A stretch of 64,000 bases of DNA from NCBI RefSeq assembly GCF_018350175.1, contig NC_058382.1:48920001-48984000 (forward strand), given 5' to 3'. The notes under the pieces were generated by a model. It was not told the origin of the DNA, did not search any database, and worked only from the letters and a program-made list of their open reading frames with translations. The position numbers and the translations under genes were made by a program. Source of the stretch: Felis catus. Taxonomy: Eukaryota. Every line of letters begins with the position of its first letter. Position 1 is the first letter of the stretch. Below, piece after piece: positions 1-62,627 of the stretch.

Positions 1-246
1 CTCGAACGGAACTGGAGAACAAATAAACAAGAACAACCACATAACATACTGCCTCCAGTGCTTACGAAGGTCCCTGCTTGAGGGGAGAAGACGGAGTGAG
101 GGGGAGAGTGCTAGATTCATGTCAAAAACCAAGGGAACCCGCGGTTATCCCATAACAAAGTCCTCCAGCTCACGGGAGAAACCAACAGACAGACCTCCGT
201 GGGATTCGGGGAGGATAAAGAGCCAGCGCAAGACTCTGCCGTGCCA

Positions 247-461
247 GGGGGCGCCTGGGTGGTTCAGTCGGTGAAGTATCTGACTTTGGCTTCGGGCCTG
301 ATCTCATGGTTTGTAGGTTCAAGCCCCGCGTTGGGCTCTGTGCAGACAGCTCAGAGCCTGGGGCCTGCTTTGGATTCTGTGTGTGTGTGTGTCTGCCCTT
401 CCCCTGCTCACACTCTGTCTCTTTCTCTCAAAAATAAACAAACATTAAAAACACAAAAAAA
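247..461 (+). mobile_element. Carnivore SINEC (mirror copy at ~61682-61896, minus)
   Basis: GGGGCGCCTGGGTGG head, CT-rich body, A-rich tail, imperfect TSD (AAGACT...GTGCC). Confidence 0.93.
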
Positions 462-1599
462 GACTGCGGTGCCTAAGTAAGTGGGTGGAGTGAGGGAAGG
501 GAGAACACTGCAGCAGTAGTTTTGATTCATTCTGCAACGGTTAGGTCTAGTCGCTTAGCTGTGTGTGATAAGAGACTGGAAAACAATTGGAGAAAGATTC
601 CCACTATGACGTAGGAGTTTCTCAGCGTGGGGCATCGATCGGGTTGTCTGGTGAGAGCTGGTGTCCTCAAAGCAAAGAGAAAACAGAATTTGCTCAATTA
701 CACGCCACCGACATAACGGTCCGAGCGTCTCAAAGTGCTCACGTGAGCAGCAGGGAAACAGATACGATTACCTTGAAAGGGAAAAAGAAGGTTCTGAGAG
801 CCGACCACTGTCAGGTGGGAAACAGGAAGCCAGTAGCCCCGTGCTAAGCGATTCATCAGCAGATAACGTTGAGTGGCTTAACGTAAACACCCTGATGGAA
901 GGCTGCCATTAGAGCTTCAACCCAAACCCCTCGAGGAAGAGGAGGAAGAAAAGCAGGAGTTTTCAGTTTTTAAACAGACAAATTTAAAAATGAGTATTTC
1001 TTTAAGAAATAGAGCACACATACACTACGCCCCCCTCCAAATGTATAAGAAATGGTACAGGTAGGTTTCTCATTGTAAGTAAATTTTACTCCCTACCCCC
1101 TAAGAAAACAAAACCAAAAACCAAAAACTTGAAATACACATGGAACTCTAGTTAATGCTACAAAAGCTGAACTGTTTTGGAGGAGGAGGGGTCAGCTTCC
1201 ATGATGAAAGAGAATGCTTCTACCAAACTGACCTTCCAAACGGTAACAGTTACACATTTAGAACAAAATACAGAATGTAATGCCCCAGAGGAACAAAGGC
1301 AGGCAGTTTTTAGAGGTGGGTCAAACGGAGCAGCAGCCTGAGCCACGGAGCAGCTAAAACTCCAACAGTAAAACCCACCAAGCTCTGGACACCACGAAAG
1401 GCGCCTCAGAAGAACCCAGGCTGCAAGAGAGCAAAGGGGAGCCTGAGAAAGGAGGCTGTCAGAGAAGGAAGATGCTCAATTACAGTGAAAACTCACTCAA
1501 GTCTCAGGCTGGCCCTAGAAATGTGCTTTGTGGGCAAATCATTTCAGATATGCCAACCCCTAGTCCCGGGAGCCCAACTTTTCCAATCTCTACTCTCTC

Positions 1600-1660
1600 C
1601 ATCTCTCTCTCTCTCAATATATATATTGGGAGGGAGGTATATGGATATATACCCACATAC

Positions 1661-1716
<56 letters not shown>

Positions 1717-1721
1717 GTATG

Positions 1722-1870: not shown

Positions 1871-4379
1871 GTCTCTATTGGTGCCTAATCCAGAGGCGGC
1901 TCAGGAAAGCTAACATCCCAGAGTCATCCACCAAGGAAGAGGCAGTGCAGGCATTCAGACCCAGGCCAGGTCAGCTCCAAAGTTATGCTCTTGACCAAAT
2001 AGGACAGCGACCCTCTGACCTCGGACTCTGGGGGACTGAGTCAGACGATGCCCCAGATCCAAGTGCCGGAGGGCCCCTAACTCTGCAGAGGCCCCTCGAG
2101 GTGAGGACAGCAGGAAGGTAAGCGCACTTCGCTCTTTACGAAGCTGCACCAAAGAGCCTCTCCTCAGTCCCTCCCGTGCCACGGGGGCCGCATGGATTAT
2201 CACCTCTCAGGGGGAGATTTGACGAGTCTGATTTGGGTTTCTAGTTAATCCTGACTACCTGCACTCCAGATGCGGGGCTGGGAGACCCGGGAAACCTCAA
2301 TTCACGAGTCTCAGCGCCACCTACCGGTGAGTTGGTACACCCAAGGCAGAAAAGAGTCCTGTCTGCTCTCCCAGGCCACGAGGCCACGACGAAACTGCCA
2401 TTTCACAGATTGGCAAACGGAGCTCGGAGCTCGCCCTCACCGCTTTCCCTCAAGTAATCATCTGGTGGATGCAGGGCGCAGCACAAGATGGTTACGGGGA
2501 AGCCAGTCCTTTGGGAGGGACTGACACGCGAGGAGGGGAGAGGACCACGTAAAGACAGAGGCGGAGAGAGTCCAGCGGCCACACCAAAGGGAGACCAGGT
2601 GTTGTGGGGAAGGGGAGGCTTCACCGAGAGATGGTGGTGATGTGGGCTGAGGTTCTGAAATTCTGGACGGTCTGCCAGGCTGACTGGAGGGGCTTGGGGG
2701 GGGGGGCATTTGTTTCCAAATGCAGAGCTCTTCCCTGAGCACAGCGGGACAGGTGCCAGGAAGGGCATCTCAGGGAGCGAGAGATGGGTCTGGCGGGTGC
2801 GAGTGGAGAGCAGGGTGAGAGGAAAGATGAGCCGCACACACACACGGGGCAAACAGGCCAGGAATCGGGCCCCAGCGTCGCACAGTGTGTGGGCCCAGAG
2901 CGAGTTCCACCATGAGGACCGTGCTCTGCCACACGCTAAGGAGTCCGGACGCAACCTCCGCAACGACTGGAGTCATGAGGACGCGCTAAGCCAGGGAGTA
3001 CAACGATCCCACGTGTTTTGGAAAGACAGCCCTGCAGAGCGAGGACAGGGTGGGAGCAGGAGCGGGGCCATCTCTTCGGGGATCGTCATCAGAGCGAGGG
3101 ATGCTACTCTCTGAACCCCGGCAGCAGCGGCAGGAACGAGAGGCCGGAAGAGACCAGAGGTCCGGGGACACCACTCGGTCGCGCTGGGTGACGAACCGGA
3201 GGTACGGGGAGAAGCCAGCGGGGCGACCAGATGACCCCGCGGTTTCTGACCCGGCTGACCATTCGTGGACTGGAAATAAAAGGAGATTTGGATGATGAGG
3301 TCGTTCCCGACGTGTCAGCTTATGGGGTTCTCACACGTAGCGGCTCAGAAGCTGGTTAGATGAGCGGAACAAAAGACCGGTGACTCCCGAGTTCGCGGCG
3401 AGGGAAGAGTCCCTCAAGGAGACGGAGGCCCTGACTGCGTCGTTCCTGCGTGGCCACGCGGCCAGACGCCCTCTATTCGAGCCGCGAGATGGCTGCTACA
3501 CCCCAGCCCGGGACCCGGTGCGTCACAGAGCACTTGGCCTCACGCTTACGGGCCCGCAGGGGGCTGCGGTTTGGCGGGTGGCGGGTGGCCCTTGCGGGCC
3601 GGGGGGTCGGCGGGCTGGGCGTCAGGCCGGGTTCAGATCTGTTTCCCGAGTCTCCCCTCCGGTGTGATCCCATGATCCTCCAAGACACGGTGGCCGCTCA
3701 GGGCACCATCGCTGATGAAAAGCCGCACCCCGGAGGGCTACGGACGCGCGTAATTTGCCTTAGGGCCTCGCTCCGGGCCTGCACACCGCGGTCTCTGCCG
3801 ACCTTTTATAAAAGTCCTCAGGACGGCTGACACATATACTCCAACCCTTTGACGCACTGCAAGGTCACCTGGCAGACGGCACAGGGCCTGAAAAGATCCG
3901 GGGAGCACAGCTAAGTGGGGCTCCTTACTGTTACATTGCGCGCTCTTTTCTCGCTCTCTGTCCCCAGCCTCAGACGTCCTCCTGGCCACCTGCCCTATGC
4001 TACGGCGCAGATGGCTTCTGGATTCAGAACGAACACCTCGGCTCCGTCTCTAGATCTTCCCACAAGCGGCATGATCTTGGAAAAGTCACGTTACCTCTGA
4101 GCCCACATCGTCTGCTAAAACCTCACCTACTAAGATTGTCACAAGATCCAATGGGATGAGGTATGAGAAGAGCCCTGTCCTGCTCTAAGTATCTTCCTTA
4201 GGAACCAGCGAAAGTCCTTCTGAAGCCACAGAGCTTTCACAGCTACCATTTGTCCTCCGGACTGCTCAACTCTTGGCACCCAGCGGTTTCGAGACACGAG
4301 AGAGAGAGCTTCCTGGAAGCCTCTCGAGAAGTACGGGTCAGACTTCCAGCCTGGTTGATTCCAGTTCACTCAGAGGGTG

Positions 4380-5700
4380 TTGCTTTACGTGTCCCGAGAC
4401 GATTCCGAGGCACCACCGCTGGTGCCTACCGCATGCTTAGCACTTTCTTGGCTGGTTCAGTCTGTCGCGTGTTAGAGACTTAGATGTGAGTCCTCAAACC
4501 TTCAGAAGACTAAGGGAGGCTATCTGTCTCTAGCCATGCCGCCACTGCGCGGAGGGTGATGGAATGCCTGTGTGTGCTGTGCCTTGGTTTCCAAATCCTG
4601 TTTTATGCTCTGGTAACACAGGTGGATAAGGTTTTGTGTATCGTGTTTATCCTCTGTTATGGCAAATACTTAACACCCTGTCGCCAAACATGAAGCACGT
4701 TTCACAGTGGACTCAGCCAGAGTAATTAACGTGTCTGTTTATTCATTTGCAGACCCAGTCGCATGAAAAGAACACGTTAATTAAACTCCGGCTTGATGGA
4801 AGTACAGGGTAGGATGTTAATACCGCGCCCGCGGAGGCAGACGTGCTGGTCACTCTGGGCGCCTCAAGTCCCCGGAGCTCCTGTGAAAGAGCCCGTGCCC
4901 TAAAATGCCTCACGTGTCCTCAGCACCACCTGCTGTCACTACACACACACACAGAAAGGGGCTGAGCAAACTGCACATTTACAAAATGTACATTTTGTAA
5001 TACAAAATGTAAATAAGGAGTTACAGCGCTGTACGATAATTACAATGGCATTTTCCTGTATCCCAAGAGCACACCGGAGAGTGAAGCGTTAACTGTGCTG
5101 CTAGAAACCCCTTGATTGAAACAAGCCGCAGAAACTTTCTACCCAGCAGGCCAGGCCTTTGATCTGGGGAAGAGAGGCTGTGGGTGGTGGAGGGGAACCC
5201 TCAGACCGAGTGATTGACTTTCTCTTTGTCCTTCCTGTCTACACCTACCGTGGGACATTCTGGCGTAAGGCATGAGAACCGAGAACCGAGAACCGGGCTT
5301 GGAGCAGAGAGGTGCTCTGAGCTCCAGTTCCTGGTGTGCAAAGGAAATCCTGGCATGGATCTTTTGAAACAGATGCTGAAACTATCCTCCCCACCCCTGG
5401 TAATTTCAGTCCTTGCGAGACAGAAAACCAAGAAGGCAGAATGTTTGCAACGGTGAATCCAAATACCACGAGTGAAAAGTCCCGTCAAGACGTGTAATTG
5501 TGCACGGGATGGTGTGCTCTGTGAAGTATCGTACAAGAAGTCACTCTGACGTTTCGTGGAGTAGGAGAAGCCCAGAAGAGAAAACAGTCAGTCCTCCTGA
5601 AGAATAGGGCATTTGGTGGGCATGAGAGCCTAGAAAGTACAAGAACCAACGTCGACAATAAAGGAGCCGTGGGACTTAGCCTTTTATCGTGGAGATGTAA
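4380..5700 (-). repeat. Old inverted paralog of distal PDPR 3' UTR sequence (~43490-44740)
   Basis: Reverse complement shares long blocks with the 3' UTR, e.g. TTGTTTCAATCAAGGGGTTTCTAGCAGCACAGTTAAC and GGATACAGGAAAATGCCATTGTAATTAT. Ends approximate. Confidence 0.9.
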
Positions 5701-5714
5701 ATAGTGACGGTTGA

Positions 5715-5899
5715 GGGGCACCTGGGTGGCTCAGTCGGTTGAGCCTCTGACTCTTGGTTTGGGCTCAGGTCATGATCTCAGCGTTGGTGGGTCCCAGTCC
5801 TGCGTCCGGCTCTGCACTGGTGGTGCAGAGTCTGCTTGGGATCCTCTCTCTCTCTCTCCTTCTCTCTCCCTCTCTCAAAATAAATAAACATCAAAAAAT
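5715..5899 (+). mobile_element. SINEC (mirror at ~56221-56430, which retains 26 bp missing here)
   Basis: SINEC head and tail; TSD AAATAGTGA(C/T)GGTTGA. Confidence 0.93.
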
Positions 5900-6849
5900 A
5901 GTGATGGTTGACGTAAGCAGGGAGAAATGCGTACAGTGTGTTCACTACTTAACTGCACGTAAACGGAATGGAATTTACCACACCATCACTTCATTTCACC
6001 CACCGTTTCGTACAGACAACTAGGTTTCTCCCCAATTCACAAGCCTGAAAATGGCATAGGTGAAACTACTCATCAGGAAAACTTGTGAAGTTTTTCTCCC
6101 CAAACTGCCACATCTGGGACGTCCTCAAGAATACAACCTCAGATGGGTTGGTCTATTTCCTCTTCCTTTTGGGTAGTCAGGTGACACCAAGCTCTAAGCC
6201 ATTAGCTAAAATACTGAAGAATTTCTCTGCACAGAAGCGCAGAATGTCTTCAACTTTTATGCGTCAGACCAGCAAGAGGCGGAGTTTCCATCCTCAGGCA
6301 GCCGGAACCCGGTGCAATGTAGCGTGTGAGTCAACTGGCGAGTCAGTGGGTAGACAGTTGTGCAGGTTGTGGGCCGGCCTGGTGCCACCGGGGTCCCTGA
6401 GCTTTCCTGCCACCCCCTAAAATGGCAGCAGCCCTCCGGTTCTTGTGCACTGCGGAATCCCATCATCAGAGGCCATAAGGAAACGAGACTGGCTCGTGTG
6501 GCAAGACGGGCTTCAATCCCAAGACCGGGAAGTGGAGAGTGTGGCCCACCGTGCAGTGGCGGCCGTGCCCTCACAACGCTCCCCATTCAAAGAAATACTG
6601 GCTGGACCATGCGCCAAGCGCTGCTGCAAGTGCTGCCGTGCCTAAGATTGAGGTTCTGTCGACAGGGTCCGGGGCCTGCCACTGGTGGCAAAGGCAGTCA
6701 GCGAACACATACTTTAGATAGTGATGAGTTCCACGAGGGAAAGAAAACAGGGCCAAGCGATAGGAAGGGAGGACTGGACGGGAGGCTTCTCAGAAGACGG
6801 AGTGAATGACTCTGCTTCCCTCGGGCCCAGGCAAGCCAGGAAGGTGCAG

Positions 6850-8140
6850 CGTGAGATCCCGCCCAGAGCTCAGGGTCGCTAAACCCGCCTCTGAGGTCGG
6901 GCCAGGCCCGCAGACCGGATTTCAGACGCTCTGCTAGAGCCTGGCCCAAGGAAGAGCCGAGCGCCTTCCAGAGACAAGGGACTGTCGGTCCACGCCGCCC
7001 TTTTGCGCCAGGGACTAGAGTGGCTTTGAGCCGCGGACCCGCTCGGGGACAGAAGCGGCAGGGCGCCTGGAGGGCAGAGCGAAGCCCCGCGCTCCCGACA
7101 CCCCGGCAAGGCCGGCGACCCACCGCAGCGTCCCCGCTCCACTTGCACACTTCAGAAAGCAGCCTGGACCACTGGGGCGGGGGCCGAGCTCCCGGGGCGG
7201 GGCCTCGCGGGACCCAAACAAGCCCCACGTGGCAGGGGCGGGGCCGCCGCGGGGACGTCACGGCGCGCGCGTGCGCGTGTGCCGGCACGCGCGGGCGTAC
7301 CCTTGCCGGGGGCCGTAAAGCGCGGAAGGTCGCGGTCTCCCGCTTCCCCGGAACTTTTTACTCCCTCCGCCCCGCCCCCTTCCCATTCCCAGTGCCCCGT
7401 TTCTGGCGGCGGGACCCCCGGCAACTGTTGTGGCTGCTGTTCCGCTGCCGCCGGGGTGCTGCTGACGGCGGAGCCCGCGGCGGCCCGTGAGGTAAGGAGA
7501 CGGCGGCGGGGCCGCTCTGGCCTCCCCTCCGCGCGGGTCTCAGCGCCCCCCTTTTCGCTTTGGTCTTCCTCGGGGGTGGTCGCGGCCGCCCCTCGTTTCC
7601 TGTCGCTCCTGCCGGGTCGCTGGGGACTCCGGCGGCCCGGGGCGGGAGTGGGTCTGCCTCGTCTCTCTCAGTCGGTCTGCGGCTGTGCGGCGTCCGGCCG
7701 AAGGGGTCCGGGGTCCGGGCCTTGGGGCCCCGTGCACGGCTGCCCCCGGGCCTGCGCTCCTCAGCCCGATGTCCAGAGCGGCCGGGGTGCCCTCGCTTCG
7801 GGCCCCCCGCCTCGGGCTTACACAGCGCCTGGCGCGGGTTTGGCTGGTCTCGCCCGCCCTTCTCCCTCTGCAGGTGCAATCGTTTTCCCGCCTGGAGACG
7901 TGCGGTCCGCCTCTGCTTCGCTAACTTGTACGCCTGCCGCAGAGTGCGGCAAGCCGAGTTACCGGGAAAAGTGTAGGCCAGGGTGGTGAACGGTCTTCGT
8001 GATGTTTGGTCACTCGGGACCCCTGTGAAGGACATTCACATTAGATTCGGGAATCTCTGTAAGCGTGACGTCCGGGCATGCGGCCGGGGGAGGGGGGGGG
8101 GGGGGGGCAGGGGAGGAGGGGAGGGGTGCCGGTGCCGGGC
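6850..8140 (+). promoter_or_regulatory. PDPR: PDPR CpG-island promoter
   Basis: Very GC- and CpG-dense. GC boxes at ~7175-7245, E-box CACGTG 7226-7231, CRE-like GACGTCA 7254-7260, NRF1-like GCGCGTGCGC 7267-7276, ETS-like CGGAAG ~7323. No TATA box seen. This motif set is typical of nuclear-encoded mitochondrial genes. Confidence 0.9.
7340..7491 (+). other. PDPR: Probable non-coding first exon of PDPR (start approximate)
   Basis: Strong donor GAG|GTAAGG at 7491/7492 just downstream of the promoter motifs. A candidate second non-coding exon acceptor (CCCTTCTCCCTCTGCAG|) lies at 7873/7874. Confidence 0.65.
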
Positions 8141-8635
8141 CACGGGGCACACTTTTCCAGCGCTAGGGATATGTATTAATTTCTTAAACTTGCCTGATCA
8201 CCTGGTGGCACGTTTTGACAGATACACCCCCGGGACCAGCCTCTCCAGAGAAAGAGCCTGGGATAGTGTTGGGGTTTTTGTCTGTTTGAAGGAAATGTCC
8301 CAGGTGGCCCTTCTGCTGAAGCAAGAGTGGGAAGTGTGTCGGTCGAGCTCCACTCACTAGGCTTCCTTGTGACCAGCGGCCCATTTGTACACACGCTGGG
8401 ACCATACAGGGGAACAACCCAGAGGGACTTGGAGCTGTCCCTTGCTCTTCTTGTCGTAAGCAGGTGTGAGCATAACCAGTCCCGATATTGAGGTTGCCTT
8501 AGCGATTCTTCCTAGAGGGAGAGAATATTATAGGGCCATCTTAGTTTTTTGTTTTTTGTTTTTAAATATAACTTATTTTAAACCCGGCTCCACCTTTTAT
8601 TTCTTTGTCTCTGACATCTTCAGATTCTTCTCTAC

Positions 8636-8850
8636 CGGCCTGGGTGGCTCAGTTGGTTGAGTGTCCCACTCTTGGATTTGGCTCAAGTCAGGATCCCAGA
8701 GTCATGGGATGAGCCCCAGATCGGGCTTCATGCTCAGCGTGGAGCCTGCTTAAGATACTCTCTCTCCCTCTGTGGCCCCTCCCCGGCTCCTGCTGGCTCC
8801 CTTTCTCTCTCTGAAAAACAAAAAAAAACCCTGAAAACAATTTTAAAAAA
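8636..8850 (+). mobile_element. Older SINEC (mirror at ~53270-53484)
   Basis: CCTGGGTGGCTCAGTTGGTTGAG...GGAGCCTGCTTAAGAT...A-rich tail. Confidence 0.88.
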
Positions 8851-8949
8851 TTACTCTATGTGATTTAGATATCCCCTGAAATCTTGGAGCCTAGCCTCAA
8901 GATCTCAGAGTCCTCACTGAATTTTTTCCCATCTCGTTTATTGTACATT

Positions 8950-11900
8950 CTCATTCCTCCGTTGATTATATTTCCTAGGTGCCTACCCTGAATGCCGGCA
9001 GAATCACGTTGAAGTGGTAACTGGTCTCAGCTCCCAGAGAGCTCCATTGTAAGAGGAGACTAAAAACTAGCGCTTACTGAGTGCTTCTCGGGTGCCAGTT
9101 ACCATGCTTTTCCTGTATTGTCTGTATTCCTGTAGTCTTTGTGGCAACCCGGCGAGGCAGGTGTTCGTAGCTCACCTTGTGGATGAGGAGCCTGGAGCAC
9201 AGAGATGGAATGACTTGCTCAAAGCCATAGAGCTGATGAGAGGTGGGGGAGATTTTCAGACCCGTACCTGTCTGCCCCCAAAGCCTGCATTTCCAGCGGG
9301 GTCGCTGTGCCGTTTCCCTGATTGGCAAACAGGCTGTGACAGTGTGGGAGGCTCTGTGCTGGAGAAGTGCAGGGTGCTGTGGGAGAACACGGAAGAGTCA
9401 CCTGAGGCGGTATTGGGGGAGAGGGGGTCTGATAAGCTGTGAAACAGGGTGAGAGCTGAGGGGATTATCCATGTTTGGGGGGCAAGGGGGCAGGAACTAT
9501 GCCGTGTGGTTCGAAGGAACAGTGTGCCCCGATCCTGGGGGTTTCAGAGAGACTCAATGCCTGTCCTGTTGGAGGAATTATCAGTATGTCCGTCTGGCTG
9601 GAGAGGAGAGAAAGAGACCAGAGGTCAGGAATGAGCCTGATGATGAAGGATCTCGCACACTTCCTGTTCAGGACAATGCTTTTTTCCTCAGGGCGTCAGA
9701 AAGCCATTGCAGAGTTTTGAAGAGGGGTGTGAACAAGGGTTTCCTTTGAGAAGCCTCCCTCCACGCCCCTCCTCGGAAGGATTGAGGGGGGGTGGGGAGA
9801 ATGGTGTGCGGAAGCCCTGTCGGGAAGCTTCTGCCTTCATCTGAGCGGGGAGGGCGGTCTGTACTCAGGTAATGGCAGTGAGGAGGGGGAGAGGTCGATG
9901 GTCTGAGGGAAATGTCGCCTGTGGAATTGTTAGTCCATGACGGTTGGCCGCATAGAGGAGGTGAGAGAGAGGGAGGTGAGAGAGGAGGTGACACCCGGGA
10001 TTCTTGTGTATGGTGTCACTGCGGGACACAGAAGTGGAGCAGATTTGGAGATTGAGGCAGGTGGGTTTCCCTTCTGGATGTGCTCGGCGTGACCCACGGG
10101 AACCCAAGTGGACATGGCCATTGTTCAGCTCGAGGTGCAGATGTAAAGCTCGGGGCTGTTGTGGGCTTAGGCGTCAGTCTTGGTACGCGTGAAATGACCC
10201 TGGAGGGTGGCAGACTGAGAGGAGAAGCTGGTCCCAGACACCCTGAGGGACAGCAACACAGAAGGATGGGCGGGGGAGGGAAGGCGGTGTAGGTGTGACC
10301 GGGGTAGTCGGTGTCAAAATAAAACAGGGACAGAGTGCGTGAGTAGCGGGAGCGATCGGCGGTGTTCAGTGCCGTGGAGAGGGTGAGTGAGATGGGCCCG
10401 GTGTCCCTGGAAGGTGGCAACAGTGGCATTCTTGGTGAGAGCAGTATTCCGGCCTGCGGGACGGGAGCTTAACCGCTTGGGTTCGGGACGGTGGAAAGGG
10501 GGGAAAGTGACAGATACCATAGGAAGCCCTTCTTGTCAAGTGAAAAAGACAGGTTGTGACGTCATAGTAAATTTTGGTGTAGCCCGCCGGCAGACTGTGC
10601 AATCACCGAGGTGTAACAAAAAGGACTTTAAGACAGGTGGTGGCACACAGGTGGGTGTCAGGGGAGCACGTGCTGCAAGATAAATAAGTCTGGGGAAATT
10701 TCATCAGCCCTGGAATTGAGTATTTTGCATGATGGGAGATCTTAATTTCCTTCTACGTTTGTGTGGTTTACAAAGACCACAATTTTTATAATTCAGAATT
10801 TGTAAAATTAAAAATCACCATTGGAAGACTGGTACGGAGCCTTTCTTGTATTTCTTAAGTCAGTTGGGAGGGACTTGAGCATATTAAAATGCTGAGGATT
10901 GGAGGGGACACTGAAGGTACGTGGAAGGGGACAGTTGATGGAGCCGAGTCAAGGGAAGGAAGGAGAGAGAGGGATCCAGGGCACGTGGGGAGGGATCAAC
11001 TTTTGACCCTACGAGGTTGAAGGAAGAGGTGGTCGTAGATGCAGGTGGAGTTTCAGGGGTTGAGGAGACAGGTTTTGTGTTTGGAAGGAAGGAAGGAGGT
11101 GGGGTCCCAGGTTGGGAGAGGAGCAGTGTTGTGGGTTCAGAACCTGAATGTAGACAGACATCTGCCTGTGGCTGAACACGCAGTGGCCCGGGGCTCGCTA
11201 CGGGGTGCCTGCTAGTGTGAGCCATGAGGGAACAGGGTCTTTTCAAGCATGACCAAGTGGTAATGGTTCTGAAGGGAGAAGGGTGCCCGCCTCCCCCCCC
11301 TCCTGATGGCAAGGTCAGTGGGACGGGCTGGCCACGTGGCAGTGGCGTTTCCCTCAGTAGAGCTGTGTCTCTGTTGAAGCAGAGGTGGAGAGAAGCTAGG
11401 TGAAGGGCTGGGTGTTCCAGTTTGGAAAGGATGTTCTGGAGGACACGGTGGAGAGGTTTGGAGCGGAGGACAGCAGACAGAGAGAGAGAGAGAGAAAGAA
11501 AGAAAGAGAGAGAGAAATCAGTCATATGGAGATGAGATTGTGGGAAGTCTGGCTGTGGAGAAGCTTCTGTCTTGAGACGGTTTGGCGGGGACCAAGGAGG
11601 TGAGGCCTGGAGGTCACCACAAGGTGGCCAAAGTAATCAGCCCTGGTTGGATGGGATTTCCTTGGGACGCAGTGGAGGCCTGCTCGGTCTCAGTTCTGAG
11701 ATCCTGTCTGATGGATGGGCACCCACACCTTGGCCTTGGACGACCTGGGCCGTCGGGGGCCCTCCGTGGGTCCCGGGCTGGTAGCGGCGTGCTGGTGGGC
11801 GCACGGGCTGCCAGGGCTCTCCTCTGAAGTGTCGCCGTCTCCCCACACTCGGAGACCGTGCCTTCGCCCACAGGGCTGTCTGCAGTTTCTTAAAAATTGA

Positions 11901-13480
11901 ACAGTCTCTTATGCCCTTAGAGTAATTCTCCCTGGTGGCCTGAACCTGTCCGCTCCCTAGTCTACCTCATGGTGTTAGTCATCTCAGAGGGACATGCGCT
12001 TGGTCGCAGCCTGTGACTCCCGTGGTTCGTCATAAGCCTGCCATGACCGGTCCTCCCCTGCTTTCAGGAAGGGGCCGTGGGACCTGGTGTCTCCAGTCTG
12101 TGGCCTGTGCAGACGTGGGGCACGCCGTCCCTCACTGCGGCTTTGGGTTTGTTTTCTCTCTCCTCCTCCTCCTCCTCCTCCTCCTCCTCCTCCTCCTCCT
12201 CCTCCTCCTCCTCCTCCTCCTTCTCTTCTCCTTCTCTTCTCCTTCTCTTCTCCTTCTCTTCTCCCTCCCTTTCTTTCCAGGACCTCATTCTTTGTCACCG
12301 CCTCTCCTTCCTCCCCCACCTCTTTCCCTCTTCCTGGCCCTTCTCGCCAGCCCTGAAACAGTCTCCGTGGCTCCCACCTTTATAGACAAATAGCCTTGCT
12401 CCACCCCCATTCTCTCCTCCTGTCTGGGGTTTCTGCTCCCTTCCGGGCAGCACGTGAGGAAGCTGTGCACACTCCCTCATCTCCTTGCTCTTGAGCTTGC
12501 TCTAGGCCGTACTTCGTCCCTGGCACTCCCCTGGGAATGTCCTCTTTGAGGACACCAAGGACCTCTGTGTCGTCAAGTCCCAGCAGGCACCTGGCCGTCT
12601 TGCTCCATCCCTGGCCACCCTCTGTAGCGAACCATCTCCTCTCTCGGCTTCTGTGACACCTCTGCCCGGTTCCCTTTCCGCCGCTCAGCCGTTTGGACGC
12701 TCTGTGAGTCTGCCCCGGCACGCAGTCCCCCGTCCAGTACTTTCTTTCTCTTGCCAAGCTGTGCCTGCTGGGGAGCCTCAGAGTTGTTCCTCAGACTGCC
12801 GGGTCTCCGGATACCCCACGTCTTCCCCAGGCTTCAGGCCTGGTTATGTAGCTGCTTGGCACTTCCACGTGGATGCCTGCTAGGTGTCTCGCCCTGGACA
12901 CCTCGGTATGCGCGCACGCGCCCTCACCGCCTCCCTCTCCCTCTCCTTCCTGCCTCCCTCTCCCTCCCGCCTCCCTCCGCATCCCTAGTCCTTCACACCT
13001 TAGGAAGTGGCACCCGTCGTCGCTTAACCTGGAAACTTTGCCATCGTCCGTCTTTCTCCCGCTCCCCATCTTAACATCCGGTTTGTTGGCAAGTTAAGTA
13101 CTGTCATTTCACCATCCACGACAATCCAGTCATGGCTCTGACTCCACCGCCACCATCCTTGTGTGAGCCACCGTGCCCTCCCTCTTGGACTCCTGCGGTA
13201 GCTTCCTAGCCCTGCCTTTCCTCCAGTCCACTCCCCACTGTGGAGCCAGGCCGATCTTAGGAAAAGCGTATCAGATCATTTCATTCCCTGCTTTAGTATT
13301 TTCCTTTGCACTTGGAGTAAAATCCCAGCTCCTCGTGAGGCATCCAAGCGCTTGTGTCACTGCTTTCTGCCTGCCTCTCCAGCCTCGTCTCTGGCCGACT
13401 GTGCCTTGCCGTCGAGCTGTGGGCACGCTGGCCTCCCTTCTGTGCTCGGACTCCTTCAGGTGTGCCTCCCCTCAGGGCCT
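8950..13480. mobile_element. Ancient MIR/L2-like fragments in the first intron(s) (mirrored in the right arm)
   Basis: MIR-like GATGAGGAGCCTGGAGCACAGAGATGGAATGACTTGCTCAAAGCC; L2-like purine-rich and pyrimidine-rich tracts. Boundaries not resolved. Confidence 0.55.
12160..12265. repeat. (TCC)~20 plus (TTCTCTTCTCC)n polypyrimidine repeat
   Basis: Read directly. The right arm (49885-49970) has only the 11-mer array. Confidence 0.97.
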
Positions 13481-13679
13481 TTGCATGTGCTTGTGCCTCT
13501 GTCTGGATGAGGCATGATGATTATCATTCTCTGTTGCCTCCTTTTCTTTTGTCACTAACCCGGCGCACTGAGTACAGTGGAATGAAATCTGTTTGCTTTC
13601 TCTGTCTAGTTTGAATTGGGGAGAATCTCCTCTTTGGCCGAGTGGGAGCACATCTCCGAGCTGCTGACTGGCAGACGTG

Positions 13680-13903
13680 ATGTTTTCCCGGTTGCTGTCG
13701 GTGGCCCGGAGACAAAGGACCGGCCGAGGATGGCAGAACTGGTCGTCGGGGAGAAGCGGTGCGCCAGCTGCCGAGGCGCATTCTGTCGCCCTGCCTGCCC
13801 AGGCACACGTGGTCATCTGTGGCGGTGGAATCATGGGCACATCCGTGGCCTATCACCTCTCCAAGATGGGCTGGAAGGATATTGTCCTTTTGGAGCAGGG
13901 CAG
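13680..13903 (+). CDS. PDPR: PDPR coding exon 1 (mitochondrial transit peptide and FAD-binding GxGxxG motif)
   Basis: MFSRLLSVARRQR...VVICGGGIMGTSVAYHLSKMGWKDIVLLEQG. ATG at 13680, preceded by in-frame GTG. Donor CAG|GTAAGG. 224 nt. Confidence 0.95.
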
Positions 13904-15059
13904 GTAAGGACCAGACGGGACCCAGCTTGGGGCCATGTTGCACCAACTGCGTGGGCTTCCCTCACCCCCTCTGCTCCCGGTAACCTGTCCCGGCAGTGGC
14001 TAACCTGTCGCTAGGTAGCATGAGAACAGTCACGGAAAGGCGAAATCTCCTGTCCATGGTTTTGCGATGTGCGATACCCGTGTTTTTGGGCTCTGAGAGA
14101 GGTGGCAGATGCCGCGGAGCCGAGTATCCGAAGAGGCTGCGTTTTATTTCAGGGTCCAGGCACATCTTACCATCTTGTTCTCCGGGTAGGGGCCGTCAAA
14201 TGGCAACATAGACCCCGTGGCTCTGGAGCTCCCTCTATGGGCGGAAATGAAATTGGCTGCATCTGTCTTCTTTCTGTTCCTTTCTTTCCCCCCACTGAAT
14301 TAACTTATTTTAGAGCCGTGCTAGATTTACAGAACAAATGCAAAGGTTGTACCGAGTTCCCGTGTGCCTCACGCCTGTGTGCACCTGGGACTGACATCTC
14401 AGGTTGGGGTTACCGTTAAATATGATGAATCAGTATGGATACCTTATTACTGACTAAGGTTCGTACTTGGTACAAGTTGTCTCACTTTCCCTTAAAGTCC
14501 TTTTTTGTTCTATTGCCTACCAGAAATTGAATGACGTTTAACAAGTCTGTTGTAATTCTCTCCGAATAGGCAATGCATTTATACGATTCAGAATTAAAAA
14601 CTGTAAAAGAGTGTGCAGGGAAAGTCTGCTTCTCATCCCTGACTTCTAGCTGAAGTTTCCCTCGCTGGAGGCAAATTAAGTTCCTAGTGTGTCGTTGCAG
14701 ACACCCCCCGTGTATATGAGCAAACGTGTTGGTCAGTGTGTACGTGTGTACGTGGGTCTTCACTTGCTATTTTTTTCTCTTTTTTTGTACAAGTTAGTGG
14801 CATATTAAGTAGTGCTCCTCCCATGCTGTTTTCATTCGGATTCCCATATTGTTGCAGAAGAGCATTCTCGTGCCTTTTTTATGGCTGCGCGGCGTCCCGT
14901 CGTGTAGGTGAACGCCAACATTTGAGATCCCTCTCCTGTCGGGATATTTAGGTTTCCGTCTTTTGATATTACGGTCGGTGCCAGTAATGAGGGTCTTTGA
15001 ACTAGTTGCATTCACAGATATGCGAGTCTACCTAAGAGCATTTTGGATCCATCCCGCAG

Positions 15060-15193
15060 GCTGGCCGCTGGCTCTACGAGGTTCTGTGCCGGCATCCTGA
15101 GCACCGCCAGGCACTTGACCATCGAGCAGAAGATGGCAGACTATTCCAACAAACTCTACCAGCAGTTAGAGCAAGAAACAGGGATCCAAACAG
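15060..15193 (+). CDS. PDPR: PDPR coding exon 2
   Basis: LAAGSTRFCAGILSTARHLTIEQKMADYSNKLYQQLEQETGIQT; AG/GT flanks; 134 nt. Confidence 0.97.
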
Positions 15194-17341
15194 GTAAGCA
15201 GGTACTCTGCCATTTACTGGTCTGCCTGTGGCCCGGACTCTTTCACTCGGTACCACATGCGGTCCGACACCAAGCCTGCCTGGGGACTTTAGTTGAGGCT
15301 TGAGTTTCAGTCCGAGCTCTGCACTCGTCCTGGTCTTACCTCGGGCCAGTGTGTGAGCGTGTTGAGCTGTCTCCCGTTTCCTTATCTGTCGAGGGGATTC
15401 GGTCATTATCTCGGATCCTATCCAGATGCCAGAATTCCTATGATGTGAAGGTTTTCCCGTGCCATTTCCTATTTCACCCTCTGAAGTATATATTAGGTGG
15501 CCACATCTGGCTCCTGAAGGAGGAAGAGAAGGAAGTGCTTAAGTTTTGGTGCTTGACAGTGAAATCATAGTCTGAGCCACTGAATTTCACCAGTCGCGCT
15601 TAAGGATATTTGTGACTGTAAAGCTTAAGCGTACGTTACCCCTTGTGTGCGTCACCAAGGGAAAAGAACCCGGGGAATCGTGAGCCGAATACGACCGGAG
15701 CAAGTAGGACGGGGAGACCAGGCTATGGGGCGGTCCCATATGAAAACAAGTAGGAAGCAGGTCTGTCAGCTTGTCGCGAGGTGATGGACTAGCCAGAAGC
15801 CCAGGGTTGAGCCTGTGTCGTAGCTGGTGAAACTGTTTGGTGGCGGCGGGAATTGTCCTAAGCGAGTAGCTGGGCCTAGTCGCTCGTGTAGCTCAGGGCT
15901 GCTCTTCAGAACACCTGCGTGATTCAAATCACAGGGAAGTCAAGACCCCTCCTGACCAGGACGGTAGCGCGATCTGTGTGCCAGCTGAGGTGGCTCTGCC
16001 ATGTGGTCACGGGGTACGCACGGCCTGGGGCTCACTTTGCCGGCCAACTGGAAATTAGGTGGCGTATGACACAGTTTTCACTGGGGAAGGTGAGATCATA
16101 ATCATCAGAGATTCTGACGACAGACTACGGTTTTCTAGCTTTCCCTTTCATATAACTCGCACTCTGGTGAAGTGTGACCTTGTTTGTCAATTGTGGGTTA
16201 AGATGAGCGTCCTGTAACAGGATTGGGTTGATGTGGCAGTGGAGAAGGGGAGATGCCAGGAGAGGAGCTACAGGCAGGCAGGAAGAGGCTGTACGTGCTT
16301 GGGCACGTGAGCAGGGTTCCCCGGCCGGCCCTGCGCTGGCCCAGTGCTGAGAGCGGGCGCCTCAGCCACCTCGCCCTGGTCCCTGCCCGGTAGATGAGCC
16401 CGACTCCCGTGGTGTCCTCGCTCTCAGCCAGGCTTGCTTTTGAGAGGCGAGGACCCGCGAGTGAAGATGGTAAATGTGCTTGGTGCCTGCCGCTGCACCG
16501 TCTCTGGCTTCTGTTAGGGAAGATGCGGGATACGTGCAGGACAGGCGGGAAGAGTCCCTCTGGGTTGGATTCAACTTGATGGCAGCCGGTACTTGAATCG
16601 GGTATCTACCAGGGATTGAGTCAGCAGAGGGTCCGTGTAATGGGCCCAGCGCCAGAACTGCTGACTTCCGGTCCACCGGTTCAGTTCCTCGTGCTTTGCC
16701 GGGCCTTGTGGTGCTCAGCTGGTTGGGTGCTAGAGGAATCAGGTCCTAGGCCTCTTTTCCGTAAGGTAAAACAATTTCAGTTGAGTTTTGGGTCCCCTCA
16801 AAACCCTTATTAGGTCCTGTATCCCCTTGATGCTTGTGGGACAGCACGGAAGTCAGGCAAGGGAGAGTCCGGGGATCAGTCAATCCGTCACCCCCAGTGC
16901 AGTTTAGCGGTGGTGCAGTAAAAGGTGACTTGGGGTACCCCGATGGAAAATTCTGTTACCCGGCAGAATGCGCAGGTGTGTGCTACTTGGATCGCTGCCA
17001 GTCGCTGGGCTGGTTTTAAGACATTAAATGAAGACGAGTGACCTGTGTACAACCTGGACTTCACGATTAGGATACTACATGCTAATCTTCTGAAAATAGT
17101 TCATTTACGTGAGGGGTATGTTCCCTACTTAAATATTCTGACACATCAGTACTTCATGCAGTGCCTGTTCCAGACCATGTAGCCCACGCGGATCTTTTTT
17201 CTTCAAATTTTGCCTTACCTTTGTCGGTGCTGTTTATTTAACAGTTTATCATATGCTCTTTGTCCCATCTTTTTATTGGGGATTATTTCTCCACTCTGTG
17301 TTACTTTCTTGTTCCTCAAATACAGAAATATTTTTAAATAT

Positions 17342-20300: not shown

Positions 20301-20405
20301 TCAGAGCCTGGAGCCTGCTTCAGATTCTGTCTCCCTCTTTCTTTGTCCCTCCCCCACTCATGCTCTGTCTCTCTCTCTCAAAAATAAACAAACATTTAAA
20401 AAAAT
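17342..20405. mobile_element. Cluster of seven SINEC elements: 17342-17550(-), 17579-17796(+), 17963-18162(-), 18421-18523(-), 19036-19204(-), 19366-19600(+), 20198-20405(+); old L1 and MLT-like fragments in between
   Basis: SINEC consensus heads and tails. TSD TAATAGTTAAATGA flanks 17579-17796 (young feline type). Confidence 0.92.
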
Positions 20406-20589
20406 AGAGTGATTATTTAAGATGTACATTAAAATCCTACTCACTCCTCCCCAAACCCCAGCTGACTATGTTTGGATGGGGCTATGCCAGGGCCGCTCAC
20501 GGGTCTTCTAACCTGTTACCTAGTGGGCTCGCCCACCCGATCCCTGTAGCTGGCCTGGTCTGCTCAGTTTGGGCTGGTTTTCCTTCCAG

Positions 20590-20671
20590 GTTACATAAGG
20601 ACAGGCTCCATCTTTCTGGCCCAAACTCAGGACCGGCTCATCTCCCTGAAGCGTATCAACTCCAGGCTGAA
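20590..20671 (+). CDS. PDPR: PDPR coding exon 3
   Basis: GYIRTGSIFLAQTQDRLISLKRINSRL; TTCCAG| acceptor and |GTATGT donor; 82 nt. Confidence 0.96.
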
Positions 20672-20767
20672 GTATGTATGAGACTAGAAGCCTGTCCTGA
20701 CACTCCTGTCAGACTGACCTCTGCCAGAGGGCCATGCATGTCATTGTCCCCTTGTGTTCTGTGGCAG

Positions 20768-20931
20768 TGTCATAGGCATCCCTTCTGAGATCATCTCCCC
20801 CAAGAAAGTGGCCGAACTTCACCCTCTCCTAAACGTGCACGACCTGGTGGGGGCCATGCATGTTCCCGAGGATGCGGTGGTGTCCTCTGCTGATGTGGCT
20901 CTTGCCCTGGCAAGTGCTGCCTCCCAAAATG
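20768..20931 (+). CDS. PDPR: PDPR coding exon 4
   Basis: VIGIPSEIISPKKVAELHPLLNVHDLVGAMHVPEDAVVSSADVALALASAASQN; 164 nt; follows a 96-nt intron. Confidence 0.97.
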
Positions 20932-21163
20932 GTAAGCATGTTTCTGGGTGAGGAGGAAAGAGGTCATGTAAGAAGGTGTCTCCCAATCGGCAGTGACCCC
21001 AACTCGGCTTCCATATTTGAACACTGGCTCTTAGAATGTTTGTTTGAATATCCTCTCTTAAGTTAATAAGTGTTTTTCCTCACGGCCACATTTTTCTTAT
21101 TAAAGTTCTAAGGAACTGCTTTTTAATAATGACCATAAGTTCAAACTTAGGGGAATTCCCCCC

Positions 21164-21197
<34 letters not shown>

Positions 21198-21634
21198 ACA
21201 GAACGTGAGAAGCTCCGAGGGCAGAAGACCTGGTGGGGACTGAGTCCGAAAGCTGGTCGTGTCCTGGGTTTGGAATGAATGAGGGGAAGACTAAGTAGTG
21301 TCCATGGTGTTCTGCACTTTGGATGAACTGATTCATGGTGTGGGTGGATTTGGATTTAAGACGCCCTATTTAACCTTCTTCTCCCCTCCCCCTTTTATGG
21401 TTCCTAGAATTGAATTGTGTACTAAACTGACCTGCTGTTTTCAGTCACGGAAGAGGCCCATGGACACTGCCCCAGGATGTGGTTCCTGGAAGTTCTTGTG
21501 TTTTTAAATTAAAGCATTGACCTGGCTTTTTCATCATTTCTCACGGGTTTAGAATCTGCTGCAGAATCTGCTGCTGCCTTAATTCTGGGCCATCCGAAGA
21601 TGGATGCACTGCCTCTTTCTTTACCTTGGAACAG

Positions 21635-21756
21635 GTGTGCAGATCTATGACCGTACAAGCGTGCTTCATGTAATGGTCAAAAAAGGCCAAGTAACCGGCG
21701 TGGAGACCGATAAAGGACAGATTGAGTGCCAGTATTTTGTCAACTGTGCTGGTCAG
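21635..21756 (+). CDS. PDPR: PDPR coding exon 5
   Basis: VQIYDRTSVLHVMVKKGQVTGVETDKGQIECQYFVNCAGQ; 122 nt; canonical splice sites. Confidence 0.96.
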
Positions 21757-22525: not shown

Positions 22526-22643
22526 TGGGCATACGAGCTGGGTCTGTCCAACGAGGAGCCGGTTAGTATCCCGTTACATGCCTGCGAACACTTCTACCTT
22601 CTGACTCGCCCCTTGGAGACCCCTCTGCAGAGCAACACACCAA
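22526..22643 (+). CDS. PDPR: PDPR coding exon 6
   Basis: WAYELGLSNEEPVSIPLHACEHFYLLTRPLETPLQSNTP; 118 nt. Confidence 0.96.
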
Positions 22644-23374: not shown

Positions 23375-23524
23375 CTGTTGTGGATGCTGATGGAAGAATT
23401 TATATCCGGAACTGGCAGGGTGGCATCTTGTCTGGGGGCTTTGAGAAGAACCCGAAGCCAATATTTACTGAGGGCAAGAACCAGCTGGAAATTCAGAATC
23501 TGCAGGAAGACTGGGATCACTTTG
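23375..23524 (+). CDS. PDPR: PDPR coding exon 7
   Basis: VVDADGRIYIRNWQGGILSGGFEKNPKPIFTEGKNQLEIQNLQEDWDHF; 150 nt. Confidence 0.97.
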
Positions 23525-60434: not shown

Positions 60435-60486
<52 letters not shown>

Positions 60487-62627
60487 TGTGGGTATATATC
60501 CATATACCTCCCTCCCAATATATATATTGAGAGAGAGAGAGATGGAGAGAGTAGAGATTGGAAAAGTTGGGCTCCCGGGACTAGGGGTTGGCATATCTGA
60601 AATGATTTGCCCACAAAGCACATTTCTAGGGCCAGCCTGAGACTTGAGTGAGTTTTCACTGTAATTGAGCATCTTCCTTCTCTGACAGCCTCCTTTCTCA
60701 GGCTCCCCTTTGCTCTCTTGCAGCCTGGGTTCTTCTGAGGCGCCTTTCGTGGTGTCCAGAGCTTGGTGGGTTTTACTGTTGGAGTTTTAGCTGCTCCGTG
60801 GCTCAGGCTGCTGCTCCGTTTGACCCACCTCTAAAAACTGCCTGCCTTTGTTCCTCTGGGGCATTACATTCTGTATTTTGTTCTAAATGTGTAACTGTTA
60901 CCGTTTGGAAGGTCAGTTTGGTAGAAGCATTCTCTTTCATCATGGAAGCTGACCCCTCCTCCTCCAAAACAGTTCAGCTTTTGTAGCATTAACTAGAGTT
61001 CCATGTGTATTTCAAGTTTTTGGTTTTTGGTTTTGTTTTCTTAGGGGGTAGGGAGTAAAATTTACTTACAATGAGAAACCTACCTGTACCATTTCTTATA
61101 CATTTGGGGGGGGCGTAGTGTATGTGTGCTCTATTTCTTAAAGAAATACTCATTTTTAAATTTGTCTGTTTAAAAACTGAAAACTCCTGCTTTTCTTCCT
61201 CCTCTTCCTCGAGGGGTTTGGGTTGAAGCTCTAATGGCAGCCTTCCATCAGGGTGTTTACGTTAAGCCACTCAACGTTATCTGCTGATGAATCGCTTAGC
61301 ACGGGGCTACTGGCTTCCTGTTTCCCACCTGACAGTGGTCGGCTCTCAGAACCTTCTTTTTTCCTTTCAAGGTAATCGTATCTGTTTCCCTGCTGCTCAC
61401 GTGAGCACTTTGAGACGCTCGGACCGTTATGTCGGTGGCGTGTAATTGAGCAAATTCTGTTTTCTCTTTGCTTTGAGGACACCAGCTCTCACCAGACAAC
61501 CCGATCGATGCCCCACGCTGAGAAACTCCTACGTCATAGTGGGAATCTTTCTCCAATTGTTTTCCAGTCTCTTATCACACACAGCTAAGCGACTAGACCT
61601 AACCGTTGCAGAATGAATCAAAACTACTGCTGCAGTGTTCTCCCTTCCCTCACTCCACCCACTTACTTAGGCACCGCAGTCTTTTTTTGTGTTTTTAATG
61701 TTTGTTTATTTTTGAGAGAAAGAGACAGAGTGTGAGCAGGGGAAGGGCAGACACACACACACACAGAATCCAAAGCAGGCCCCAGACTCTGAGCTGTCTG
61801 CACAGAGCCCAACGCGGGGCTTGAACCTACAAACCATGAGATCAGGCCCGAAGCCAAAGTCAGATACTTCACCGACTGAACCACCCAGGCGCCCCCTGGC
61901 ACGGCAGAGTCTTGAGCTGGCTCTTTATCCTCCCCGAATCCCACGGAGGTTTGTCTGTTGGTTTCTCCCGTGAGCTGGAGGACTTTGTTATGGGATAACC
62001 GCGGGTTCCCTTGGTTTTTGACAAGAATCTAGCACTCTCCCCCTCACTCCGTCTTCTCCCCTCAAGCAGGGACCTTCGTAAGCACTGGAGGCAGTATGTT
62101 ATGTGGTTGTTCTTGTTTATTTGTTCTCCAGTTCCGTTCGAGGTGTGGACTCTTCAGGGAGAAGGGCACTGGTGGAAAATCGGGAGCCTGCGGAGCCTGT
62201 ACCACTGCGGACCCGGGACGTGGCCTTGCCCCTCCCCATCTAGGCTCCCCAAGAGCACAGCCCCTCCCCTCCTCCACAGCTGTGTAACTTTCTAGAATTT
62301 AGTCGTTTGTGGGACACTTGGGTTGAATTTCTGTAAGGCCAGCAGGAGGGAGACTGTGGCGTGACCACGGTCAGGAAACCGAGCCCTGACCAGCGGCCCT
62401 TGGTCACAAATGGAATATCTGGTAGAAACGAATGAGAGCCTCAAGTCACCTGTAAATGGGATAAAAATGTGTATGTGGCACACAATATAGCATATTTAAA
62501 TTTTTATTGATAATTGGAATGTATTAATCTTCTTAAAATTTATTAAAATGTGGATTACAATTTTAAAACAATAGAGATAATACAAAAATTTTAAAGCTCC
62601 CCAAATTCTGCATTAAAAAGTGATTCC

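Follow-up and report, generated by a model that had tools for sequence, protein, structure and literature searches.

A truncated inverted copy of PDPR in an autosomal palindrome of the cat appears to be older than the carnivore radiation

Conserved palindromes that undergo gene conversion have been documented mainly on sex chromosomes, and few autosomal examples spanning tens of millions of years have been characterised well. The palindromes of the human X chromosome have arms of 8-140 kb and spacers of 77 bp to 358 kb, and the inverted repeats at FLNA/EMD (palindrome P24) are cited as showing inversion polymorphism of the spacer (available part of PMC8327919). The gene pairs BMP8A/B (inverted), DDX19A/B (in human band 16q22.1) and TUBG1/2 are described as paralogs more than 97% alike, in exons and introns, over tens of millions of years (available part of PMC2720389). 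A human duplicate of PDPR, named 'PDPR_2', is also on record (available part of PMC13639854). Here we describe the PDPR locus of the cat (Felis catus) in a stretch of 64,000 nucleotides, called the window below (contig NC_058382.1 of assembly GCF_018350175.1, positions 48,920,001 to 48,984,000, forward strand). PDPR lies in a palindrome whose right arm carries a second, inverted and truncated copy of its 5' part. We consider it likely that the palindrome is genuine, that it goes back to an inverted segmental duplication before the carnivore radiation, and that gene conversion between the arms has homogenised it.

When the window was compared with itself by blastn, positions 1-16709 matched the inverse of 62142-45441 with 98.76% identity over 16,768 columns (83 mismatches and 36 gap openings). 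A repeat search of the window recovered the arms as 13 collinear pieces of 98-100% identity. Both results bear out the near-identical inverted arms (1-16709 and 45441-62142) that had been proposed in a first-pass annotation of this DNA, and the spacer, put there at 28.7 kb, measured 28,731 bp. The arm length of at least 16.7 kb given in that annotation holds as a bound, but the window edge cuts the arms, which continue on both sides. With 50 kb of flank added on each side (negative coordinates lie left of the window, those above 64000 right of it), the alignment grew to -3382..16709 against 65522..45441 (20,153 columns, 127 mismatches, and 40 gap openings). A further 826-bp piece (-4207..-3382 against 74903..74078, 98.7%) was found beyond a segment present in the right arm only. 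In total, the arms have ~20.9 kb in common, with 99.3% identity at aligned bases and 98.7% when indel columns are counted. In a MAFFT alignment of the core arms, there were 146 mismatches (110 transitions and 36 transversions) and 20 indel events, which comprised 132 bases in all and were mostly in microsatellites. The removal of 15 misaligned positions in a CT repeat left 131 mismatches in ~20,020 columns, an arm divergence of 0.65% (99.35% identity). The arm sequence was found at exactly two places in the whole cat genome (2.43 Gb in 71 contigs).

The spacer and the left arm hold PDPR on the + strand. Its Pfam domains were collinear in the + strand open reading frames (ORFs), with DAO in five ORFs, FAO_M in two, and GCV_T in three, and the best-named relatives in the protein search were the PDPR proteins of many mammals (114 hits among 242 candidates). 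Residues 1-878 of PDPR from the mole (Talpa) aligned in 16 collinear + strand pieces, equal to 17 coding exons between 13680 and 40355, and the cat UniRef entry for PDPR matched at 100% over most exons. The order DAO-FAO_M-GCV_T and the full-length collinear match to an ortholog identify the gene as PDPR. At a stricter setting used in an initial search, all 18 of the 18 genome-wide matches to the cat PDPR protein fell at this locus, 15 on the + strand and 3 on the - strand. No other Pfam domain was detected in 84 arm ORFs of at least 70 amino acids, nor in the + strand ORFs of at least 50 amino acids from 6064 onward.

The first-pass annotation had placed coding exons 1-2 in each arm, and we located them on the + strand and, mirrored, on the - strand (exons 1' and 2', Table 1). 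There was no coding difference between exons 1'-2' and exons 1-2, the nearest arm difference being 20 bp into intron 1. Exons 3-17 had been called single-copy, which is right for all of them except exon 8. Exon 8 and its surroundings recur in inverted orientation at 45441-44993, directly next to the right arm, as a 454-bp piece with ~91.4-91.5% identity to its parent in blastn. Exon 8' differs from exon 8 at 10 of 198 columns (~5%), and seven of these differences change the amino acid, GGA to TGA among them. In its intron flank, 255 columns contain 26 mismatches and 5 gap columns (10-12%). The bases 45441-45444 (TTGT) are common to the arm end and to the sequence upstream of exon 8, and we read this junction as a 4-bp-microhomology deletion that removed the equivalent of 16710-24584 (7.9 kb, exons 3-7). 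Past 44993, no PDPR homology was detected in the copy by blastn at E <= 1e-3. The exon 8' relic probably accounts for a junction that had been flagged earlier at ~45027. As coding parts of PDPR, the right-arm gene has only exons 1' and 2' and a diverged exon 8' with a premature TGA, without a complete coding set, and it looks like a truncated, pseudogene-like copy.

By the measures used for palindromes, the inverted arms exceed 8 kb each, their identity reaches ~99% on substitutions and is borderline with gaps, and the unique spacer falls in the known size range. As a repeat of at least 1 kb and at least 90% identity that is not an interspersed repeat, the pair is also a segmental duplication. 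The arms do not carry complete gene families, as they hold the PDPR 5' flank and coding exons 1-2 only. Like the primate X palindromes in the available part of PMC8327919, the cat palindrome has inverted arms of tens of kb with ~99% identity or more and a spacer of tens of kb which may hold genes. Like them, it persists across species, and there the arm identity is ascribed to conversion between the arms. The arm identity of the cat lies at the low end relative to the X palindromes of that source. Unlike these palindromes, the one of the cat is autosomal, on a contig that also has AARS1-, EXOSC6-, and GLG1-like genes. Moreover, its arms consist of the 5' part of one broadly needed gene and not of a testis-biased family (as far as the available part of PMC8327919 describes such families), and one gene runs from the arm into the spacer. 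FLNA/EMD is alike in that the spacer genes are broadly expressed and a flip by non-allelic homologous recombination (NAHR) is expected to leave the genes intact (cited in the available part of PMC8327919). Unlike FLNA/EMD, the cat gene crosses the arm-spacer boundary, and a flip would swap the arm that donates the promoter and exons 1-2.

Outside the cat, the comparative evidence consists of annotated protein models from automatic pipelines, and species were counted from the RefSeq proteins named 'PDPR, mitochondrial-like' among the matches listed in two protein searches. The same gene model was observed across Carnivora, with exons 1-2 joined straight to the exon 8 peptide and then, where it is present, to a tail that is not PDPR. 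PDPR-like proteins occur in at least Lynx canadensis, L. rufus, Panthera, Prionailurus, and Herpailurus/Puma among the felids, in at least Vulpes, Nyctereutes, and Canis aureus among the canids, in Ursus (at least three entries), and in at least Mustela and Lutra among the mustelids. Among seals and sea lions, they were found in at least Mirounga, Leptonychotes, Halichoerus, Neomonachus, Zalophus, Callorhinus, and Eumetopias. Models with the exon 1-2-8'(-tail) architecture are annotated as loci apart from PDPR in Lynx (two species), Panthera, Prionailurus, Vulpes, Nyctereutes, Canis aureus, Ursus, Mustela, Mirounga, Leptonychotes, Halichoerus, Zalophus, and Callorhinus, and at least four more felid-type entries belong with them. 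A few of the models are read-through or frame-shifted variants. The tails mapped onto two places of the cat - strand. Tail exon A was matched by Prionailurus (93%), Mustela (65%), and Canis aureus (a short match), and tail exon B by Prionailurus (100%), Vulpes (56%, in another frame), Zalophus and, weakly, Kogia (E = 0.003). The felid models of 182/183 amino acids end, in 7 of 7 cases, at the codon where the cat has TGA. The same architecture and tails in feliforms and caniforms indicate that the truncated convergent copy predates the split of the two suborders. On the evidence of these models, the copy appears to be older than the carnivore radiation and common to all carnivores. The first-pass annotation had proposed an independent local duplication in the cat lineage; the models of this architecture across Carnivora speak against it, as does the 10-12% divergence of the exon 8' flank.

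Models from two cetaceans, Kogia (P0191, P0190, and P0187) and Balaenoptera (P0194), contain exon 8' and a tail without exons 1-2. They are named 'PDPR-like' or 'sarcosine dehydrogenase-like', and the tail resembles those of canids and bears. There are thus hints that the exon 8' relic predates Carnivora, and the copy is perhaps older than the carnivore-cetacean split. Bat PDPR-like models (P0121, P0130, and P0122) were not counted as the same event, as exons 1-2 lead to exon 5 in Eptesicus and Myotis has other tails; either a partial duplication of their own or alternative splicing of the same gene could explain them. The short models of camel, sheep, goat, horse, and Pteropus are ambiguous; they comprise all or some of exons 1-8, lack the GRF-type tail, and may be PDPR isoforms. 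The human and ape PDPR-like proteins among the matches listed have 491-799 amino acids and are near-full-length. A duplicate of PDPR in human is PDPR2P. The human and cat copies are alike in that extra copies of the same gene, partial or near-complete, lie in segmental duplications and that copies are transcribed, probably in the cat and, as far as the available part of PMC13639854 describes them, in human. Unlike the cat copy, the primate copies listed are long and have neither the exon 2-to-8 junction nor the GRF-type tail.

Concerted evolution of the two copies was observed at the protein level, on 119 residues (exons 1-2) and 63 residues (exon 8) per model. In exons 1-2, PDPR and the PDPR-like protein were identical in all four same-species pairs (cat, Panthera, Mirounga, and Nyctereutes), and species-specific residues were present in both paralogs (Tyr2 in Nyctereutes and His43 in the cat). 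In exon 8, family-specific residues were likewise found in both paralogs, namely felid SPAVQGYYVLVG, canid ELDTLEIM...CILGESPLV...AGISF, and arctoid MPDLETLEIL, and the exon 8' sequences cluster according to family, not paralog. In a maximum-likelihood tree of exon 8 (LG+G4, 28 rows x 63 columns), canid PDPR and the canid copy were joined with 98/97 support and the felid copies grouped with 84/94, in an alignment that is short and leaves most branches without resolution. The approximately unbiased test rejected a single clade for the 17 copies (log-likelihood difference of 51.3, p = 0.0007). EIV, GVN, and the stop are shared by the felid copies and are absent from felid PDPR. Among eight felid copies, 1 of 952 cells departed from the consensus in exons 1'-2' compared to 15 of 504 in exon 8' (Fisher P = 1.2e-6, with cells that are not independent). 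The paralogs are therefore closer within species, at the protein level, as conversion between the arms predicts.

The divergence of the exon 8' flank (10-12%) is ~17 times that of the arms (0.65%), which indicates that the high arm identity is better explained by conversion than by youth. With a mutation rate of ~1.2-2.2e-9 per site and year, roughly 1.5-3 million years have passed since the arms last matched, and the ~11% of the exon 8' flank would take roughly 25-47 million years. Conversion of exon 8' would be rarer and older, after the split of the families and before the crown felids. Like BMP8A/B, DDX19A/B, and TUBG1/2, the copies are closer to their paralogs than to their orthologs, in the cat probably by conversion (available part of PMC2720389). 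Unlike those pairs, which are described there as complete and functional, the cat partner is truncated and pseudogene-like, and the conversion would cover ~21 kb that is mostly non-coding. The implied age, at least that of the carnivoran radiation, exceeds the 25 million years documented in the available part of PMC8327919, with the cat figure resting on protein models. The palindrome of the cat agrees with the X palindromes in size, identity, and spacer and appears older than first thought; it shows no new principle. Searches of the literature turned up no paper that describes this locus.

Table 1. Positions of the arms, the PDPR exons, and the elements of the inverted copy, in window coordinates
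Feature	Position	Strand	Remarks
Left arm	1-16709, extends 4,207 bases beyond the window to contig position 48,915,794	+	PDPR upstream region, CpG islands, coding exons 1-2
Right arm	45441-64000, on to 74903	-	inverted PDPR upstream region, CpG islands, exons 1'-2'; interrupted at 65523-74077
Spacer	16710-45440 (28,731 bp)		rest of PDPR intron 2, exons 3-17, and 3' region on +; exon 8' and tail exons on -
Right-only segment	65523-74077 (8,555 bp)		44% GC, L1-like text near one end
CpG island, left	6451-8200	+	counterpart of 53901-55650, which makes a PDPR promoter with 5' non-coding exons probable here
CpG island, right	53901-55650	-	first exons of annotated model LOC102902613
PDPR coding exon 1	13680-13904	+	start codon, presequence, GGGIMG motif that binds flavin adenine dinucleotide (FAD)
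PDPR coding exon 2	15058-15192	+	left arm
PDPR coding exons 3-17	20589-40358	+	spacer; DAO, FAO_M, GCV_T domains
PDPR exon 8	24598-24792	+	spacer
PDPR last coding exon	39954-40355, then stop codon (to 40358)	+	
Exon 1'	48470-48246	-	translation has 75/75 residues the same as exon 1
Exon 2'	47092-46958	-	no difference from exon 2; GT donor at end
Exon 8-region copy	45441-44993 (45444 with shared TTGT)	-	corresponds to 24585-25036; adjoins right arm directly
Exon 8'	45428-45234	-	AG acceptor, GT donor, premature TGA two codons before donor
Tail exon A	43075-42992	-	matches felid, mustelid, and canid PDPR-like tails; canonical AG/GT splice sites
Tail exon B	42559-42451	-	matches felid, canid, and otariid tails, cetacean weakly; canonical splice sites

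The first-pass annotation had described a CpG-island promoter in each arm, the two facing each other, and the islands at 6451-8200 and 53901-55650 agree with this. Smaller CpG islands surround the ATG exons of both copies. The cat RefSeq model LOC102902613 (P0001, 524 amino acids) runs mostly out of frame through GC-rich sequence, and its best map is the right arm (55874-55509, 55260-54619, 48672-48244, 47093-46938, and 45429-45232). Residues 100-313 of this model, at 55260-54619, match the right arm at 99.5% and the left arm at 97.6%. The mapping indicates that 5' exons of the right-hand transcript lie in the right CpG island. The model reads exon 8' out of frame, and its match is not evidence of a real encoded protein. 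On the + strand, the first poly(A) hexamer (AATAAA/ATTAAA) after the PDPR stop (40358) is at 43629. The tail exons lie between these two positions on the - strand and are thus antisense to the likely 3' untranslated region (3'UTR) of PDPR, so that a tail-to-tail overlap is probable. We infer that the right-arm promoter is transcribed and that its product overlaps the 3' region of PDPR in antisense. The right arm would then have a working-looking promoter and a truncated transcript that runs convergently into the PDPR 3' region. RNA runs were considered as evidence of expression and set aside; four metatranscriptomes hold 0.61-0.95 of the sampled words and two hold 0.11-0.12, and intron words are present too.

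For the right-only segment, a target-site duplication was looked for and none was seen, and the segment has no ORF longer than 224 amino acids. It may be an insertion in the right arm or a deletion in the left arm. A 21-base indel between the arms, at 57187 (right) opposite 4979 (left), forms a small, almost perfect palindrome of its own, as a fold-back or a templated insertion might leave behind. AT, CT, CCT, and TG microsatellites contain further arm indels (1670-1725, 11905, and 12189 are examples). An interspersed element of ~460 bp at 17330-17810 has well over 100 copies in the genome with 75-85% identity, many of which match both strands. Interspersed repeats were also found at 4690-5453, 43758-44462, and 56693-57139, and a repeat of 78-84% identity is common to arms and spacer. 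The Rfam scan of the window gave no matches at gathering thresholds.

The neighbours on the left, on the + strand, are a tRNA_SAD exon of AARS1-like type (L009:168-488) and an RNase_PH ORF of EXOSC6-like type (L009:4548-5684), and on the right, on the - strand, four Cys_rich_FGFR repeats of GLG1-like type (flank stretches L016 and L018). In the mouse, the gene order is presumably AARS1-EXOSC6-CLEC18A-PDPR-GLG1. This order and the AARS1/EXOSC6-like genes on the left and the GLG1-like gene on the right indicate that the right arm is the derived copy, inserted between PDPR and GLG1 at their 3' ends. The human band of DDX19A/B, 16q22.1, is, we assume, also that of AARS1 and PDPR. No domain of CLEC18 type, presumably a neighbour of PDPR, was detected by Pfam between EXOSC6 and PDPR in the flank ORFs of at least 85 amino acids. 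By the outer edge of the right arm (74903), a + strand ORF at 74685-75191 (169 amino acids) has an immunoglobulin (Ig) V-set domain (Pfam E = 2.4e-12), and its nearest PDB entries are variable regions of antibody lambda light chains (best E = 1.5e-26). The ORF resembles a lone V-like exon of an Ig light chain, situated between PDPR and GLG1.

The locus probably arose as follows. An ancestral event would have copied the PDPR 5' flank and exons 1-8, at least -4207..25036, and the copy would have been inserted in inverted orientation between the PDPR 3' end and GLG1. It then would have lost the 7.9 kb that correspond to 16710-24584, with exons 3-7, through the 4-bp-microhomology deletion, and would have gained two tail exons farther downstream, antisense to the PDPR 3' region. 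The ~21-kb arms, still contiguous with parent sequence, would have been homogenised repeatedly by intrachromosomal gene conversion, while exon 8', beyond the deletion breakpoint, would be converted rarely and so would decay, with a stop common to felids. Selection on the PDPR promoter and exons 1-2 may make the left arm the effective donor and keep the second arm intact. If NAHR took place between the arms, the spacer would be inverted and exons 3-17 would pass to the other arm with the gene unbroken, so that the spacer may lie in different orientations in different individuals or species.

Assembly is known to generate spurious high-identity duplicates of tens of kb, and the 8.6-kb extra of the right arm could be a heterozygous insertion; a second haplotype or a mis-joined contig might thus have been placed downstream of PDPR as a false inverted duplication. 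We give this hardly any credence. No N was found in the window or in the surrounding 164 kb, and the right arm meets the exon 8 relic (91% identity) at a junction with microhomology, a configuration that would not result from joining two haplotypes. The 0.65% divergence with its 3:1 transition excess resembles genuine mutation, LOC102902613 uses right-arm-specific sequence, and many independent assemblies of carnivores contain equivalent models. In addition, 0.98-0.99 of 645 sampled words of 42400-48600 were present in 14 DNA-like runs from 10 studies; six of these runs (four studies) are not flagged as a possible source of the assembly, and the independence of the runs is not certain. Specific to the right copy are 15.0% of the 31-mers of this segment (8.0% arm variants, 6.5% exon 8', and 0.5% junction). 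The signs of a false duplication, which are gaps or joins at the junctions, copies that differ only at the level of heterozygosity, and absence from independent data, were not found, and the sequence evidence makes an assembly artefact very unlikely. Another way to account for an arm divergence ~17 times below that of the exon 8' flank, and for arms that end sharply at 16709/45441, is a duplication or re-duplication in Felis or the felid lineage within a few million years, perhaps over an older exon 8 relic. It appears quite improbable in view of the exon 1'-2'-8'-tail models in both carnivoran suborders, which imply that, by the time felids and caniforms split, exons 1'-2' and exon 8' already lay on one strand with exons 1'-2' upstream. 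In addition, EIV, GVN, and the stop are derived features of the felid copies that felid PDPR lacks, and a recent event would have to recreate the same breakpoint beside the old relic.

The second copy may also have been kept for a function, either as a short protein with the FAD-binding motif (~182-213 amino acids) or as an antisense RNA that tunes PDPR. The copy persists across Carnivora with a conserved splice structure, the frame stays open across exons 2' and 8' (in caniforms also into the tail), the tail exons are antisense between 40358 and 43629, and it has been argued that conserved X-chromosome palindromes owe their maintenance to selection on the genes they carry (available part of PMC8327919). 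We still find a selected function improbable. The premature stop in exon 8' is common to felids, amino-acid changes in exon 8' reach the 15/504 cells compared to 1/952 given above with 7 of 10 substitutions non-synonymous in the cat, and the tails are read in different frames between the models of different species. These observations indicate that a protein product is not conserved; a regulatory RNA role for the right-arm transcript is possible. An old duplication homogenised by conversion is the reading that we prefer, and several points weigh against it. The Lutra lutra models (P0231 and P0046) have exons 1-8 (or 2-8) followed by a carnivore tail, unlike Mustela and the other carnivores listed, and this clashes with a carnivore-wide deletion of exons 3-7 unless conversion restored them or the model is chimeric. 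The 7.9 kb could have been restored by conversion, the model could be a chimera, or the arrangement in Lutra could be different and the deletion not universal. The cetacean link consists of a short tail similarity, with E = 0.003 to cat DNA, and a visual likeness to canid tails. Arm mismatches per 1-kb bin are uneven (index of dispersion of 3.4, chi-square P = 2e-7, with 23 in the outermost kb, which suggests a rise towards the outer edge), and this patchy density fits patchy conversion, but variation in the mutation rate could also cause it. The evidence for conversion comes from short annotated protein models (119 and 63 residues), and the 10-12% intron divergence is lower than would be expected of an event more than 55 million years old without some later conversion. 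Finally, the word shares are unable to resolve the ~3 junction words, and some of the runs are possibly not independent of the assembly.

The locus provides a built-in control, since the part of the copy within the arms stays identical to the functional gene while the part past the breakpoint decays with a stop. This contrast allows the limits of conversion tracts, the bias of conversion, and the protection by a selected donor to be measured. In practice, short reads of PDPR exons 1-2 and the promoter map ambiguously in carnivores, and RefSeq models named 'PDPR-like' or 'uncharacterized' are best read as the truncated copy. The inverted arms predict spacer inversions that flip the orientation of PDPR in some assemblies or individuals. 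A wider reading, which we regard as rather doubtful, is that an autosomal palindrome has kept long converting arms since before the carnivoran radiation, possibly since a common ancestor with the whales, with a PDPR gene that tolerates flips and a convergent transcript that could dampen it. If this were true, the palindrome would be older than any documented sex-chromosome palindrome. It would have persisted because one arm is the indispensable 5' end of PDPR, with conversion repairing the other arm, and both orientations of the spacer may coexist in populations. The promoter that does not drive exons 3-17 would then drive a transcript over the PDPR 3'UTR and could influence the control of pyruvate dehydrogenase.

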